Made by a program: the position numbers and the translations under genes
Part shown: one piece after another, positions 1,230 to 63,100 of the stretch
How the letters are laid out: every line of letters begins with the position of its first letter
Position numbering within the stretch: position 1 is the first letter of the stretch
NCBI GenBank assembly: GCA_041489925.1
Contig: JBGPSD010000005.1
Span: 1,581 to 65,580, forward strand
From: Candidatus Nanoarchaeia archaeon
GTDB taxonomy: Archaea; Nanobdellota; Nanobdellia; Woesearchaeales; ARS49
DNA length: 64,000 nt
Direction: 5' to 3'
Notes under the pieces: model-generated
Databases searched by the model: none
Told to the model about the DNA's origin: nothing
Seen by the model: the letters and a program-made list of their open reading frames with translations, nothing else

Positions 1230-1284
1230 ATGAACCGATACAAATATTCCGCTTATAAAACTTCGGCAAAATCAGAACTTGATA

Positions 1285-1342
1285 TGTCGGAAACACTTAC
1301 GGGTGTTTCCGAGCACGCTCAAGAACCCTGATGGTTCTTGAC
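1285..1342 (+). repeat. double-hairpin element, copy F1 (core GAGCACGCTCA)
   Basis: TGTCGGAAAC-acttacgggt-GTTTCCGAGCACGCTCAAGAACC-ctgat-GGTTCTTGAC. Two stem-loops flank a palindromic core. Related copies lie at 26269-26324 and 56896-56935. This copy overlaps the 3' end of the oxidoreductase gene. Confidence 0.7.
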
Positions 1343-2698
1343 GTTCCAGAAAGCCCTCTGCACAACTTCTGGCAGTGCAGGATGGACGTGGATTGCGTGC
1401 AAAATCCCATTAACGCCTAATTTCCCCTTCATTGCAACAACAACTTCGTGAATCAAAATTGAAGCATCAGAGCCAAGTATGTGGCAGCCAAGAATCGCTT
1501 TTGTTTTAGGATCAGCAAGAACCTTCACAAACCCGTCCTTGTCCTCAATTGACTTTCCATAGGCAGTGTCATAATGCCTGTATCTGCCCACAACATAAGG
1601 AATCTTTTTCTCCTTTAATTCCTCCTCTGTCATTCCAACACCTGCAATCTGGGGCGAGGAAAACACTGCGTGGGGCATTGCGTCATAAGGAACCCTGTGT
1701 TTTTGTTTTGGATTAAGCGCGTTTTCAACAGCAAAGGAAGCCTCAAGGTTGGCAGAGTGCTTGAACAAATACACCCCTGCAATGTCGCCAATAGCCCAAA
1801 TGCCAGGGACATTTGTCTCCATAAACTCATTTGTCGTTATGAAGCCAGGCTTGTAAGTTAGCACTCCTGTCTTTGCAACGTCAAGGATGTCAGTGTTTGG
1901 AATCCTGCCTGTGGCGACAAGCAATTGCTCGCCTGCAACAATGCGCTTTTGCTTTCCAACAGAGTATTCTACCGCGATGTTTTTGCCTTGCTTGAAGACC
2001 CTTTTTGTTGTTGCGTTAAGTATGACATTGTGCTTTTTCGCAAAAACCCTGGTAAATGCCTGCGCAATCTCAGAATCCTCTGCTGTGACAAGCCAGCCGC
2101 TCCTCTGCAAAACAGTCACTTTTGTGCCCATAGAGCCAAAGAAGTGAGCCAGTTCTGCAGCAATGTAGCCGCCCCCTATTATTACAAGGCTTGCGGGCTG
2201 TTTTGGCAGCCTGAGAGCCTCGTCAGAAGTTATGTAATTTACCTTGTCCAAACCAGGAATCTGCGGTATTGAAGGCCTTGTTCCTGCGCAGATGAATATT
2301 TTGTCAGCTGTAATTACATCCTTTCCAACTTTTAGCTTTTTCTTTCCGACAAATTTTGCAGTTGTTTTGTAGACAGTGACGTTTTTTGCTTCCCTGTTTC
2401 CCTGCTCTATTTCCTTTGCCTCTGTGTCAACAGTTTCTGAAACGCGCTTAATTATCGCTTTCCAGTCAATGCCCTCCACCTTTGCTTTTATTCCGAGCAG
2501 TTGCGCGCGGTTTATCTCGTCCATCACATCTGCACTGCGGATAAGCATCTTTGAAGGCACACAACCGCGGTTCAAACAAGTGCCGCCAAAAGCACCCTGC
2601 TCAACAACTGCCACCTTTAACCCGCGCTCAGCAGCATAAGCGGAAATAATCAGCCCAGAACCCGCGCCTATTACGATTGCATCAAACCTCTTTTCCAT
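1319..2698 (-). CDS. lpd: class I pyridine nucleotide-disulfide oxidoreductase (dihydrolipoyl dehydrogenase-like)
   Basis: N-terminal FAD motif GAGSGL, redox disulfide GGTCLNRGCVPSK, second Rossmann motif IIGGGYIAAE, C-terminal HVHPALPE dimerisation/active-site motif. Confidence 0.88.
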   Translation of the reverse strand: MEKRFDAIVIGAGSGLIISAYAAERGLKVAVVEQGAFGGTCLNRGCVPSKMLIRSADVMDEINRAQLLGIKAKVEGIDWKAIIKRVSETVDTEAKEIEQGNREAKNVTVYKTTAKFVGKKKLKVGKDVITADKIFICAGTRPSIPQIPGLDKVNYITSDEALRLPKQPASLVIIGGGYIAAELAHFFGSMGTKVTVLQRSGWLVTAEDSEIAQAFTRVFAKKHNVILNATTKRVFKQGKNIAVEYSVGKQKRIVAGEQLLVATGRIPNTDILDVAKTGVLTYKPGFITTNEFMETNVPGIWAIGDIAGVYLFKHSANLEASFAVENALNPKQKHRVPYDAMPHAVFSSPQIAGVGMTEEELKEKKIPYVVGRYRHYDTAYGKSIEDKDGFVKVLADPKTKAILGCHILGSDASILIHEVVVAMKGKLGVNGILHAIHVHPALPEVVQRAFWNVKNHQGS

Positions 2699-25521: not shown

Positions 25522-26073
25522 TTAACGAACCATTTGCCCTGTCTGCTGCTTTGGGGCAGGCATCGGTGCAGGTTTTACAGGCACAGGCTGTGGCGCAGAA
25601 GGTGCTTTTGGAACTGCAGGCTTCGGAGCAACAGGCTTGACTTCAGCGGGCTTTGCCGCTGCTGGCTTGACTTCAGCTGGTTTTGCAGGCAGCGCCGACT
25701 TCGTCGGCTGGTCTGCACTCGCCCCTGCTCGTGCAGGCGCTTCAGGCTTCTTCTCGCCAGGCTTTGCGCCCTTCTTCGGCTTCTCTTCTTTCTTTTTCTC
25801 AACAGGAGCGCCGACAATTTCAGCCCTTACAATGCCCTTGTCGTCCTTTATAACATTGACCTTGACCCTTGAAGGCGGATTCTTGATGCCGTGGCTCCAG
25901 AGAATCAGGTTGAGGTATTTGCCGAGCTTTATGTTGTCCATTTCCTCAACTTTCATGTGGCGCATCAGGAATTCGCGTATAGCTCGCACTGCCTTTTTCG
26001 CGCGCTTGTACTTGACTGATTTCAGCCATTCCCTGCGCAAGGGTATTGTGTAAGTGCGTTCAATGTTTGCCAT
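25522..26073 (-). CDS. rpl31e: 50S ribosomal protein L31e with a long Ala/Pro/Lys-rich C-terminal extension
   Basis: The N-terminal ~90 aa (ERTYTIPLRREWLKSVKYKRAKKAVRAIREF...) are L31e-like. The remaining ~90 aa are low-complexity. Confidence 0.88.
   Translation of the reverse strand: MANIERTYTIPLRREWLKSVKYKRAKKAVRAIREFLMRHMKVEEMDNIKLGKYLNLILWSHGIKNPPSRVKVNVIKDDKGIVRAEIVGAPVEKKKEEKPKKGAKPGEKKPEAPARAGASADQPTKSALPAKPAEVKPAAAKPAEVKPVAPKPAVPKAPSAPQPVPVKPAPMPAPKQQTGQMVR
25684..25738 (-). repeat. structured insertion E3, in frame in the L31e tail
   Basis: Sense strand: GCCTGCA | CGAGCAGGGGCGAGTGCAGACCAGCCGACGAAGTCGGCGCT | GCCTGCA. Encodes ...RAGASADQPTKSALPA... Hairpins CTGCAC/GTGCAG and GCCGAC/GTCGGC parallel those of E2. 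Confidence 0.7.
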
Positions 26074-26250: not shown

Positions 26251-27018
26251 TCATTCACTCTTGGGCGTGTCAAGAACCTTTCGAGGTTCTTGAGCATGCT
26301 CGGAAACCTTCCTGGTTTCCGACACTTCAGGGGCTGCTGCCGGAGCAGGTGCTGCTTCTGGTGCAGGCAAAACCGCCTGAGTTTCAACTTTTTTCCTTGG
26401 CGCGCGCTTTCTCTTTGGCGCTGCCTCAACTGGCGCAGCAGGCGCACCTTCAGCCGGAGCGCTTTCAACAGGCGCTTCGCCTTCTTCAGGTGCAACTTTC
26501 TTCCTTACGCGCGCTTTCTTTGCAGGTTTCTCCTTTGGAAGCTCTGTGATATTGAGTTCTCCGCCTGGATTCTTTGGAAGGACAATGTTCTTTTCCTTCA
26601 TGTAAGCGTCTGCAATCTTGCCGAGGAATGAAAGTCCCTGGGGGGTTATCGCGCGGCCCTTGTGCAGGCCTTTGTCAATCTTCTTCGCGAATCCCGCTTT
26701 CTCAAGCTGCTGGAGAACTTTTCTCAAAATGTTTCCTGAGCCCGGGTAGAACCGCTCAGGTGCGTGGCCGCAGTTTTTCTTGCCGCCGTAAATCGTGCGG
26801 AGCTTTTGCACTCCGATAGGACCTTCAACATCGCTGAGCCTTCTCAGGACTGCTGCTGCGCGTACAAACCACCAGTCATCCCGCATCGGCTGTCTTTGCT
26901 TTGACATTCCTGTCTTGACAAAAATCGACCACTGCGGCGGCTGTATGGCTGTGACTTTCTGCAGTTCCTTTGACGCCCTTTCAATGAGCTCTGTCTTTGG
27001 AATTTCGTATATACCCAT
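26251..27018 (-). CDS. rps19e: 30S ribosomal protein S19e with a ~100-aa Ala/Pro/Lys/Glu-rich C-terminal extension
   Basis: The N-terminal ~150 aa are S19e-like (PPQWSIFVKTG, DDWWFVRAAAVLRRL). The tail is low-complexity and ends in the F2 element. Confidence 0.9.
   Translation of the reverse strand: MGIYEIPKTELIERASKELQKVTAIQPPQWSIFVKTGMSKQRQPMRDDWWFVRAAAVLRRLSDVEGPIGVQKLRTIYGGKKNCGHAPERFYPGSGNILRKVLQQLEKAGFAKKIDKGLHKGRAITPQGLSFLGKIADAYMKEKNIVLPKNPGGELNITELPKEKPAKKARVRKKVAPEEGEAPVESAPAEGAPAAPVEAAPKRKRAPRKKVETQAVLPAPEAAPAPAAAPEVSETRKVSEHAQEPRKVLDTPKSE
26269..26324 (-). repeat. double-hairpin element, copy F2, in frame at the end of rps19e
   Basis: Minus strand: TGTCGGAAAC-cagga-aGGTTTCCGAGCATGCTCAAGAACC-tcgaaa-GGTTCTTGAC. 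Encodes ...VSETRKVSEHAQEPRKVLD... Confidence 0.7.
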
Positions 27019-56228: not shown

Positions 56229-56686
56229 GCGGCATAAAAGCATATTTCCCAACCTTTAAGTTTCGCCAGGTATTTGCTTGCTGTATGAATGAAGCAGTAG
56301 CTGGCAGGTTAAGAGAATTAGGAGTTAAGGAACCGGATTTAGAAGAAACTATGGTAATTTTATCAGCCCCAACGCCTGATGAAGCATCGCAAAAAATGGG
56401 CGAGTTTCATTATGGCGCAGGATATTCCCAAGTAATGCTTCCAATGTTCAGAGTATTATACCAAAGGGGGGATATAAGACAATCAGTTCTCAGGGACCTT
56501 GAATCTACGCACGTTCCCCCTAATACAATAGATGATTATTTTATGAATATGGGAAATACGCCTCTCTTAGTATTCCATTGCAGACATGAAAATGACATTG
56601 CTATGGATGCAAGGAATGCGTTTGTTACCAGGGCGGACGAATTAATGCTAACTTATCTAAAAAAAGCTGCAGGTATCGTTAATTCT
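56229..56686. mobile_element. putative single-gene cassette inserted at the DUF357 gene 3' end
   Basis: Bounded by the perfect 29-nt direct repeat. Contains one ORF (56285..56698), convergent to the host gene. No recombinase gene is present. Confidence 0.45.
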
Positions 56687-56698
56687 AATCCACAGTAA
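56285..56698 (+). CDS. hypothetical protein (cassette ORF)
   Basis: Track ORF 56153..56698 trimmed to MNEAVAGRLRELG... Its last codons read through the repeat copy. Confidence 0.4.
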   Translation: MNEAVAGRLRELGVKEPDLEETMVILSAPTPDEASQKMGEFHYGAGYSQVMLPMFRVLYQRGDIRQSVLRDLESTHVPPNTIDDYFMNMGNTPLLVFHCRHENDIAMDARNAFVTRADELMLTYLKKAAGIVNSNPQ

Positions 56699-57038
56699 AC
56701 AGCGTGTCATCGTGGTCTACGTCAAAGAAGCCAAGCCTTGCACCGGCATCCAGCCACCCGTGGGCATAATTCAAAGCTGCAAAGGCAGTCACAATATCGC
56801 CTTTCTGCTCAAAGTGCTTTGCGTCAGAAAAATACCTTTGAGCCATGTCAAAAACCACATGCGCAAGACAGTACATGCAGGAACAATTAGCGCGTGGTTT
56901 TTGAGCATGCTCAGAAATGCGCGGCATTTCTGACATATCTAAGAAGTCTTTTGCCTTGGCTATTTTGACTTTCTCAAGTGCCCTTGAAGTCACGTCAAAG
57001 TACTTTTTCAGCTTTTCAGGAGTTATTTCCGAGCTCAT
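56685..57038 (-). CDS. DUF357-like protein, first gene downstream of rpoK
   Basis: YFSDAKHFEQKGDIVTAFAALNYAHGWLDAGARLG resembles the archaeal DUF357 family (from memory). 4-nt overlap with rpoK. Confidence 0.55.
   Translation of the reverse strand: MSSEITPEKLKKYFDVTSRALEKVKIAKAKDFLDMSEMPRISEHAQKPRANCSCMYCLAHVVFDMAQRYFSDAKHFEQKGDIVTAFAALNYAHGWLDAGARLGFFDVDHDDTLFTVD
56687..56715. repeat. 29-nt perfect direct repeat, proximal copy
   Basis: Identical to 56200-56228. Encodes the C-terminal HDDTLFTVD of the DUF357-like protein. Confidence 0.9.
56896..56935 (-). repeat. double-hairpin element, copy F3 (degenerate), in frame inside the DUF357-like gene
   Basis: Minus strand: TGTCAGAAAT-gccgcg-CATTTCTGAGCATGCTCAAAAACC. 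Encodes ...DMSEMPRISEHAQKPR..., compare F2 VSETRKVSEHAQEPR. Confidence 0.6.
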
Positions 57039-63010: not shown

Positions 63011-63100
63011 GGGCTCTTAGCTCAGTCTGGTAGAGCATTCGGCTCTTACGCTTATTGCGCAGAAACCGAATGGCCAAGGGTTCAAATCCCTTAGAGCCCG
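63011..63100 (+). tRNA. tRNA-Lys (anticodon CUU) with a 16-nt intron
   Basis: Hand fold: acceptor GGGCUCU/AGAGCCC, D arm GCUC-AGUCUGGUA-GAGC, anticodon stem UUCGG/CCGAA with loop CUCUUA[intron]A, T arm AAGGG-UUCAAAU-CCCUU, discriminator G. Confidence 0.85.
63049..63064 (+). other. putative tRNA intron at canonical position 37/38
   Basis: CGCUUAUUGCGCAGAA interrupts the anticodon loop and contains an internal CGC/GCG helix. Exact boundaries not verified by a BHB fold. Confidence 0.6.

Follow-up and report, generated by a model that had tools for sequence, protein, structure and literature searches.

Very small two-hairpin DNA elements of Woesearchaeota: a probably mobile family found in frame within protein genes

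The 64-kb stretch of DNA analysed here (the window) comes from a metagenome-assembled genome (MAG) of a woesearchaeote and holds three copies of one short double-hairpin sequence, two of which lie in the sense direction inside protein genes, raising the question of what kind of sequence can enter unrelated genes and leave them readable. The most probable answer is that the copies belong to a family of mobile DNA elements that are very small (55-205 nt) and carry no gene, and that insert at the target TTNAHA, are frame-compatible within genes and are moved in trans. Such a mobile family has apparently not been described before in Woesearchaeota. The main genome, G000, from which the window is taken, is a Woesearchaeota (DPANN) MAG of 1.06 Mb in 25 contigs, with 47% G+C and 99% completeness; its relatives are deposited as Candidatus Woesearchaeota (DPANN) MAGs, and the sister genome used most often for comparison, G004, is of the same genus. 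Gene contexts are based on open reading frames (ORFs), Pfam hits and ortholog comparisons rather than on curated annotation.

Each element is built of two adjacent DNA hairpins with the bounds TGTC...GACA, joined at the palindrome GAGCATGCTC. In element orientation the layout is TG-TC[RRRAAN...]GA-(G)-CA for hairpin A, followed by TG-(C)-TC[AAGAAC...]GA-CA for hairpin B, with one conserved unpaired base in each (G in hairpin A, C in hairpin B). The hairpin bases and the joint TTTCYGAGCATGCTCAAGAAC are conserved across the archaeal order; the upper stems and loops vary and can host other, nested hairpin modules. All three window copies reported in the earlier note were found again, a 22-base pattern over the joint matching three elements against 0.03 expected from shuffles, and their boundaries were amended to follow the form TGTC...GAC(A/G) (Table 1). 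The third copy, F3, had been called degenerate; it is a full copy, the earlier coordinates (56896-56935) having covered the first half only and missed a hairpin B with an extended stem and a 25-nt loop. As single-stranded DNA, copies F1, F2 and F3 fold into exactly the two hairpins, with z values of -6.95, -7.46 and -4.28 against dinucleotide shuffles and a fold energy of -20.1 kcal/mol for F1. Where F3 differs from F1 and F2 in the stems the changes are paired, from TCGGAAAC/GTTTCCGA to TCAGAAAT/ATTTCTGA in stem A and from AAGAACC/GGTTCTT to AAAAACC/GGTTTTT in stem B.

In an alignment of 47 distinct copies over their conserved blocks, both sides have changed in 18 of 27 stem pairs and 93.9% of cells are paired, values to which none of 500 shuffles or slid registers comes close. 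Double-sided changes number 166 against 19 one-sided, wobble-type cells, and G-T intermediates are nearly absent. Since wobble pairs should be tolerated in an RNA fold under selection, this near-exclusive Watson-Crick covariation argues for hairpins or cruciforms of DNA, and the stems appear from the alignment to act as DNA, not RNA. The terminal pairs also covary, CGTC at the left end occurring with GAGCGTG and GACG at the right end with GAGCACG; since these are the outermost pairs, the hairpin bases coincide with the boundaries of the element.

The family extends far beyond the three copies first noticed, as the main genome holds 19 complete elements of 55-205 nt. Exact GAGCA[CT]GCTC cores number 13, of which 12 lie inside elements, and words from the element rank among the most repeated 14-mers of the genome. 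Of 41 relatives, 20 contain a 21-mer covering the joint; copy numbers range from 0 to 39 per genome and from 0 to 22 inside the genus. A phylum-wide sample of 401 high-quality genomes (roughly 285 of them Woesearchaeales) has the 21-mer in 58, of which 57 belong to the same order and are spread over many families; outside the order there is one single match, with one mismatch, and a reversed-pattern control gave zero everywhere. No Rfam family matched the element, whether by the gathering threshold or by E-value.

Elements from other genera often measure 140-180 nt, with termini and joint unchanged and interiors that are lineage-specific. Longer copies likewise keep the termini and the joint, having either extended stems or other two-hairpin modules (ACTTGAG..CTCAAGT, TCGACAATC.., CGAAAACGC..) nested in the joint or the loops. 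Modules nested within the GAGCATGCTC joint, which occur as the pairs ACTTGAG..CTCAAGT with TCGACAATC.. or ACTTGAGCAACGC.. with CGAAAACGC.. (Table 1), mark the joint itself as an insertion hotspot for sister elements. One variant copy on contig C9 (20838-20900, minus strand) has its hairpin A swapped for a hairpin built from the flank (TTGACATCTCCAC...GTGGAGATGTCAA), which resembles an inverted copy of the insertion site.

Copies come and go among close relatives. The sister genome carries 18 copies, four of them orthologous to copies in the main genome and at least 11 at sites that are empty there; the flanks of filled and empty sites are mostly 80-98% identical, and the difference is exactly the TGTC...GACA unit. 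In eleven filled/empty pairs the two junctions have 0-6 nt in common, with more than 1 nt only where the target resembles TTGACA, and since this sharing varies with the likeness of the target to TTGACA there is no fixed target duplication. The left flank carries a clear rule. Among 59 non-redundant copies from 12 genomes, the positions before TGTC show T at -6 in 46, T at -5 in 39, A at -3 in 50 and A at -1 in 49, position -4 being G or another base and G never occurring at -2; 35 further copies from eight other genomes replicate this (T-6 in 27, T-5 in 24, A-3 in 31 and A-1 in 29). The right flank gives no comparable signal. The element itself ends in CTTGACA, and the preferred target, TTNAHA, is thus a rough match to its final six bases, TTGACA; the element inserts cleanly immediately 3' of this target.

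This target bears directly on what an insertion does to a gene. Within coding sequence TTGAYA can be read only as xTT-GAY-A or TTG-AYA, because the third frame contains TGA, and those are the two frames in which the terminal TTGACA of the element is no stop either, so that an insert whose length is a multiple of three would be read through. Sense copies wholly inside reading frames occur in the genes for ribosomal protein S19e and a DUF357 protein in the main genome and in four genes of the sister genome, which encode an HMGL-type synthase (interrupted immediately ahead of DTTLRDGEQ), a PP-loop ATPase, an ACT-domain protein and one protein without known function. Seven coding copies were measured, and their lengths (57, 57, 57, 72, 75, 90 and 90 nt) are all multiples of three; copies without a long ORF through them are distributed over the length residue classes as 19, 12 and 21. 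The conserved parts of the element are open in four of six reading frames, and the frame in use reads (M/V)SETxKVSEHAQEP...VLD in six of the seven measured copies and CRKP..FPSMLKNL..FLT in the other. A copy that is read through would add the hydrophilic peptide VSETxKVSEHAQEP...VLD, and copies in genes would persist in loops or tails, where they can supply a new stop codon (as in F1) or, before a displaced start codon, a Shine-Dalgarno-like GGAG. To judge from their sequences, the coding copies are translated and not spliced, as a scan of six of them for the bulge-helix-bulge (BHB) motif, limited to strict geometry and allowing shifts of up to 6 nt at both boundaries, found none. The earlier note had the same SEHAQEP-type frame open in all three window copies; this frame is an in-frame coding insert in F2 and F3, but in F1 it lies on a strand without a real gene.

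The three host genes in the window can each be compared with orthologs that lack the element. F1 lies antisense in the 3' end of a pyridine nucleotide-disulphide oxidoreductase gene, three codons ahead of the native stop, and the overlap with the stop region that had been reported on the opposite strand is such that F1 provides the last 7 codons and the TGA. The protein in the window therefore ends in ...FWNVKNHQGS, its stop being the TGA inside F1, whereas relatives without the insert end in ...QRAFSSIKF or ...ANIEF, with the pattern ...QRAF-x-x-(I/V/F)-(K/E)-F before the stop. An ortholog of F1 is present in the sister genome (L069), nine other orthologs of the oxidoreductase are without it, and its left flank, CTTGATA, conforms to the target rule.

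F2 encodes VSETRKVSEHAQEPRKVLD(T) close to the C-terminus of S19e. It had been proposed to form the last ~20 codons of the gene, of which the extent stands (codons 231-250 of 255) and the terminal position does not, as the final five codons are native. In the closest relative, whose protein is 97% identical (L013), the 57 nt are missing and the protein ends ...APAT-DAPKSE; four further orthologs (L014-L017) also lack the segment. A census with a 41-residue query against 5.8 billion sequences, the query being too short for significance, returned only the query itself and one other public S19e with the same insert (P0002). In the same part of the window, the ORF at 25522-26073 on the minus strand (L31e-like by eye) and S19e each carry a Pro/Ala/Lys-rich C-terminal extension reaching ~100 residues past the conserved domain.

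F3 is internal to the DUF357 gene, as first noted, and makes up residues 36-65 of the 117-residue product (Pfam PF04010). Over 58 genomes of the family this protein is typically 96 aa long and runs from ...AEDFLDM straight into AQRYF..., ~50 orthologs being without an insert. Only the main and sister genomes and two genomes of two other genera (G045 and G066) have the insert after DFLDM; a fifth genome, G016, has a decayed version of it, and four genomes of the main genome's own genus have the protein without it. The four inserts have unusual stem variants in common (TCAGAAATGC, AAAAACCAC), which points to descent from one old event. In all four carriers, from three genera, the loop of hairpin B (window 56846-56895, minus strand) encodes CxCxxC, followed by xxH in the main and sister genomes; the Cys codons alternate between TGT and TGC and the codons between them change freely. 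These synonymous Cys-codon changes amid freely changing neighbours suggest protein-level selection on the insert, and the mobile DNA may have been co-opted here as a small loop that binds metal. AlphaFold models the protein with a mean pLDDT of 81 and has the insert run from right after helix 1 into the start of helix 2, with pLDDT 57-62 for the insert and 91-97 for the core. Just upstream of the insert the gene of the main genome (56936-57038, minus strand) is without nine codons, KAKTIDWEA, that the sister genome has (L021).

The combination of same-orientation end hairpins, extrahelical bases, Watson-Crick covariation, no target duplication, a target resembling the 3' end and clean empty sites points to the single-strand logic of HUH enzymes. 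Transposition of this type, as in IS200/IS605, REP/RAYT or rolling-circle systems, is the leading candidate mechanism if the elements are mobile, though within that explanation it still stands at somewhat less than an even chance. The folded single-stranded element would be recognised by a structure- and sequence-specific nuclease or recombinase acting in trans, which would cut after the same short motif at the element end and at the target; an excised circle or tandem copy would join the element ends GGTTCTTGACA-TGTCGGAAAC (TTGACA-TGTC).

Several results weigh against the explanation as mobile DNA. In six-frame searches neither Y1/HUH (PF01797) nor TnpB (PF07282) was found in G000, G004, G013 or G033, and the presence of these domains elsewhere does not follow copy number. 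Serine recombinase (PF00239), IS110 (PF01548) and GIY-YIG (Ssn-type, PF01541) domains are absent from the copy-rich G000 and G004 and absent or uncorrelated in G013 and G033; outside these searches were tyrosine recombinases and DDE transposases, the latter being disfavoured by the missing target duplication. No autonomous, ORF-bearing copy was found in the main genome, and no pair of left and right ends there encloses a transposase-like gene. In its position the cleavage motif, which overlaps the stem of hairpin B, is unlike that of IS608, which lies outside the hairpin. Viral contigs of IMG/VR gave no match to the core, and the copies analysed share descent, so that the counts are not fully independent and their independence is overstated.

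Partner genes were also sought between neighbouring copies. The gene between two nearby copies on contig C1 encodes a TRAM-domain protein, and the 2.5 kb between two copies on contig C9 hold ORFs that look housekeeping-like by eye (SppA-like and Dph2-like; no domain search was run on them). A bacterial-type sigma factor, considered because the element ends in a -35-like TTGACA, occurs in 7 of 12 copy-rich and 12 of 29 copy-poor genomes and shows no association. A rather speculative proposal, more doubtful than not, is that the mover is a single-stranded DNA cut-and-join activity beyond Y1 HUH, TnpB, serine recombinase, IS110 DEDD and GIY-YIG, which moves both the family and the nested sister modules and is perhaps a small protein so far unrecognised or a housekeeping enzyme that Woesearchaeales have co-opted; alternatively, the mover could come from outside these MAGs. 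If such an activity were responsible, target mimicry would make insertions frame-compatible by construction, and the elements would serve these minimal genomes as a lasting source of new loops in proteins, new C-termini and new leaders with a Shine-Dalgarno sequence.

Many copies adjoin a start or a stop codon. The antisense form of TTNAHA, T-ATG-NAA, sets hairpin A 0-1 nt from start codons such as ATGAA. Copies abutting a start codon have a TATA-like box ~27-33 nt upstream of their far end, a spacing that puts the element downstream of the predicted transcription start of a gene once leaderless and ahead of the ATG. Over the whole main genome, in which AAGCTTTATAAA is the most frequent 12-mer, the sequence before the ATGs of long ORFs shows a peak of TATA-like words at -30 to -28 and one of GGAG-like words at -12 to -9, indicating that leaderless and Shine-Dalgarno-led starts coexist. 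Of 10 start-abutting copies, 6 have GGAG or GAGG at 8-11 nt ahead of the ATG, against 4 of the 49 others (Fisher p 7e-4), and this distance equals that of the genome's own Shine-Dalgarno peak; if two RtcA copies with an ATG across the boundary are added by hand, the counts become 8 of 12 and 2 of 47. The enrichment may reflect selection on tolerated copies or a subfamily effect, and is rated as a lead. Genes led by such copies (Table 1) include those for RtcA, S3Ae, an Lrp-type regulator and a sugar kinase, and some of the copies open with a short ATG-initiated frame that ends on the real start (ATGA).

Related modules were also seen in tRNA-like sequences of the main genome. On contig C16 (5560-5860, minus strand), hairpin inserts made of related modules split a tRNA-Arg(TCG)-like gene in the D-loop and again in the T-loop, and a second, intact tRNA-Arg(TCG) lies inside the hairpin loop of the first insert. 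Behind tRNA-Ser(GCT) and tRNA-Ser(GGA) (C1:96803-96990 and C2:43412-43620) there follow an inverted and then a direct copy of the gene's own T-arm and 3' end, the direct copy being split between TTCA and AAT by a chimeric insert that combines hairpin A of the family with a different second hairpin. In the window itself, ARAGORN calls positions 63011-63100 (plus strand) a tRNA-Pyl(CTA) with an intron; by eye this is more likely a tRNA-Lys(CTT) with a 16-nt intron near the anticodon. ARAGORN gave no match for tRNA-Asp or tRNA-Lys(TTT) anywhere in the assembly.

Table 1. Coordinates of the window copies, of their host genes and of the copies in the main genome (G000) referred to in the text
Feature	Location	Strand	Description
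Copy F1	window 1285-1343	+	59 nt; hairpin A 1287-1312, joint GCACGC, hairpin B 1316-1343
Copy F2	window 26268-26324	-	57 nt = 19 codons; sense, in frame in S19e
Copy F3	window 56846-56935	-	90 nt = 30 codons; sense, in frame in DUF357 gene
Host gene 1, pyridine nucleotide-disulphide oxidoreductase	window 1319-2698	-	459 aa; ORF; Pfam PF07992 and PF02852
Stranded native end of the oxidoreductase gene	window 1272-1283	-	ATC AAG TTC TGA = I K F stop; behind the insert, no longer read
Host gene 2, ribosomal protein S19e	window 26251-27018	-	255 codons, long Pro/Ala-rich C-terminal tail; ORF; Pfam PF01090 at residues 3-141
Host gene 3, DUF357 protein	window 56685-57038	-	117 aa; Pfam PF04010; orthologs without insert 96 aa
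Copy with modules nested in the joint	C13:9917-10023		G000
Copy with modules nested in the joint	C1:17707-17852		G000
Copy with modules nested in the joint	C1:88504-88708		G000
Copy with modules nested in the joint	C8:1288-1433		G000
Copy with modules nested in the joint; also start-abutting	C12:20814-20971		G000; carries GGAG or GAGG
Copy with modules nested in the joint	C1:185979-186143		G000
Start-abutting copy	C10:16296-16408		G000; carries GGAG or GAGG
Start-abutting copy	C3:33329-33441		G000; carries GGAG or GAGG
Start-abutting copy	C8:32752-32838		G000; carries GGAG or GAGG
Start-abutting copy	C1:31975-32063		G000; carries GGAG or GAGG
Start-abutting copy	C1:114046-114125		G000; carries GGAG or GAGG

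The interrupted tRNA sequences bear on one alternative, in which the elements are BHB introns or derivatives of them, spliced by the tRNA-splicing endonuclease and harmless wherever they are inserted. Related hairpin modules do interrupt the D- and T-loops of the tRNA-Arg(TCG)-like gene and the duplicated tRNA-Ser T-loop at exact loop positions, and DPANN archaea have non-canonical tRNA introns and endonucleases of broad specificity. However, an intact tRNA copy lies beside each interrupted tRNA sequence, the canonical tRNA introns of the main genome have none of the modules, and G-T pairs are avoided in the stems. No hBHBh' geometry occurs within 6 nt of the boundaries of the six coding copies scanned, the seven measured coding copies are all open and of 3n length, which splicing does not require, and the Cys codons of the DUF357 insert are conserved through synonymous changes. 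On the grounds of the missing strict motif, the 3n rule and the unrelated canonical tRNA introns, a BHB intron is rejected for the coding copies, and the explanation as a whole is very improbable. A different alternative sees in the elements motifs that serve the host (such as sites for a binding protein, stabilisers or terminators of mRNA, or leaders for translation), kept by selection and with their spread secondary. Conservation of the 21-base joint and the hairpin bases across the order would fit such a role, as would the many copies exactly at gene boundaries and the GGAG brought to start codons at Shine-Dalgarno distance; Ssn in Neisseria also shows that a host nuclease for single-stranded DNA can be tied to hundreds of hairpin repeats, the NTS (PMC11893778). 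Against a host role, complete genomes of one family have anything from 0 to 39 copies, and those of one genus from 0 to 22; the genes beside the copies are of unrelated kinds (RtcA, S3Ae, an Lrp-type regulator, a kinase and a glycosyltransferase). Copies also occur within coding regions, in one orientation or the other, sister genomes have empty sites at the orthologous positions, and GIY-YIG genes do not track the repeats, leaving a host role with a low probability.

An equally low probability attaches to the view that the copies are immobile relics of an old burst, shuffled by homologous recombination of their flanks and removed by precise deletion. The DUF357 copy, one old event common to three genera yet patchy within each genus, behaves as such a relic would, and no transposase was found among the classes searched. 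But the main and sister genomes, with S19e proteins 97% identical, differ at no fewer than 12 sites, several of which have only 0-1 nt common to the junctions, making slippage deletion unlikely, and derived insertions fall within universally conserved motifs, as between IFD and TTLRDGEQ. The last alternative, that the SEHAQEP-type segment is an ancestral protein feature lost by most lineages, can draw on the presence of the DUF357 insert in three genera and of its decayed version in a fourth (G016). It has a negligible chance: one and the same nucleotide element is found both in unrelated genes and between genes, and in either orientation, the ~50 DUF357 orthologs that read straight through at the insertion point lack it, and the solved DUF357 structures (2oo2 and 2pmr) have 82-87 residues and align to the query only after the insert. 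The original view of the segment as an insertion is therefore upheld, and the refuting condition set in the earlier note, conservation of the segment in orthologs across distant archaea, does not hold, as it is missing from five S19e orthologs, the closest 97% identical, and from ~50 of 58 DUF357 proteins.

A mobile family of this kind would matter in several ways. In-frame selfish DNA in protein genes has so far been essentially restricted to Rickettsia, and the present elements would be a second, independent and archaeal case; that this second case occurs in equally reduced genomes suggests that such insertion is what generally happens in genomes that are very small and have little non-coding DNA. 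The family is suited to study because it has a precise sequence definition, an insertion rule and many filled/empty pairs among close relatives, to which is added one old insert, the DUF357 CxCxxC loop, apparently kept under protein-level selection. In the annotation of Woesearchaeota, gene prediction will yield C-termini that are altered, N-terminal extensions that are false and peptide inserts that look odd. The mobilising enzyme, once found, could be a new site-specific nuclease or recombinase for single-stranded DNA.

Among known systems, several share single features with the elements. Classical MITEs (miniature transposable elements with inverted repeats) derived from DDE transposons have a fixed target duplication and an autonomous relative, neither of which was seen here, the relative having been sought in the main genome, and the missing duplication sets the elements apart from this class; terminal inverted repeats of the MITE type (TGTC...GACA) are present, but the likeness is weak, as each terminus pairs inside its own hairpin and not with the other end. 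Integron attC sites have the arms RYYYAAC...GTTRRRY, whereas the arms here are YRRRAAC...GTTYYYR, by inspection the opposite purine/pyrimidine pattern, on which ground the resemblance was rejected (IntI was not searched). Archaeal BHB introns of tRNA, rRNA and cbf5 mRNA are likewise short structured insertions at precise gene positions, including tRNA loops, and differ in having the motif at their boundaries and in that the coding copies here are open and of 3n length. The miniatures of IS200/IS605 (such as the PATEs of Haloquadratum) and REP/REPIN sequences with RAYT resemble the elements in mechanistic signature, having same-orientation end hairpins, extrahelical stem bases, no target duplication, insertion 3' of a short specific sequence and clean sites compatible with seamless excision. 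In comparison to the IS200/IS605 miniatures, the present elements are only two hairpins long, have the cleavage motif within the stem of hairpin B and occur without Y1 or TnpB in the genomes with the highest copy numbers; although the hairpin ends, the lack of duplication and the target agree, the elements are not counted among the IS200/IS605 derivatives, a Y1 partner (PF01797) being absent. The NTS/SRM repeats cut by Ssn are also hairpin repeats, present in hundreds and recognised as single-stranded DNA by a dedicated site-specific nuclease; Ssn is of the GIY-YIG superfamily, of which no gene tracks the present elements, and the part of the source available does not report NTS as in-frame coding insertions (PMC11893778). 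The double-hairpin elements of mitochondria and the GC clusters of yeast (GC42) resemble them as tiny mobile DNA of very small genomes in which stems are conserved, loops vary and units merge or nest, with a mobilising activity that has likewise not been identified; GC clusters differ in their putative AG target duplication, their AT-rich organellar setting and their unrelated sequences (PMC4478555).

The nearest parallel in behaviour, already pointed out in the earlier note, is that with the Rickettsia palindromic elements (RPEs), and it is strengthened by in-frame copies in six unrelated genes, two in the main genome and four in the sister genome. Both are short, palindromic, gene-less repeats that lie in frame in unrelated housekeeping genes, where the extra peptide is tolerated by the fold, and in both the mobilising enzyme is not known. 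RPEs differ in their alphaproteobacterial rather than DPANN host and in their length of ~100-150 nt, as opposed to 55-90 nt in genes here, while the two-hairpin build, the conserved palindromic joint and the TTNAHA target that mimics the 3' end set the archaeal elements apart. To our knowledge, and without an alignment, the two show no recognisable resemblance in sequence. Where a 2024 review of MITEs in prokaryotes mentions insertions that are often in frame, its example is the RPEs; the archaeal MITEs it covers are those of Sulfolobus, Halobacterium, Haloquadratum, Desulfurococcus and a few others, and none is an equivalent of the present elements (PMC10969869), in keeping with the earlier note, which was not aware of an archaeal counterpart. 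A literature search likewise found nothing on such elements in Woesearchaeota. Membership among the RPEs is not claimed, the likeness being one of behaviour alone, but by that analogy the woesearchaeal element would work like an RPE.

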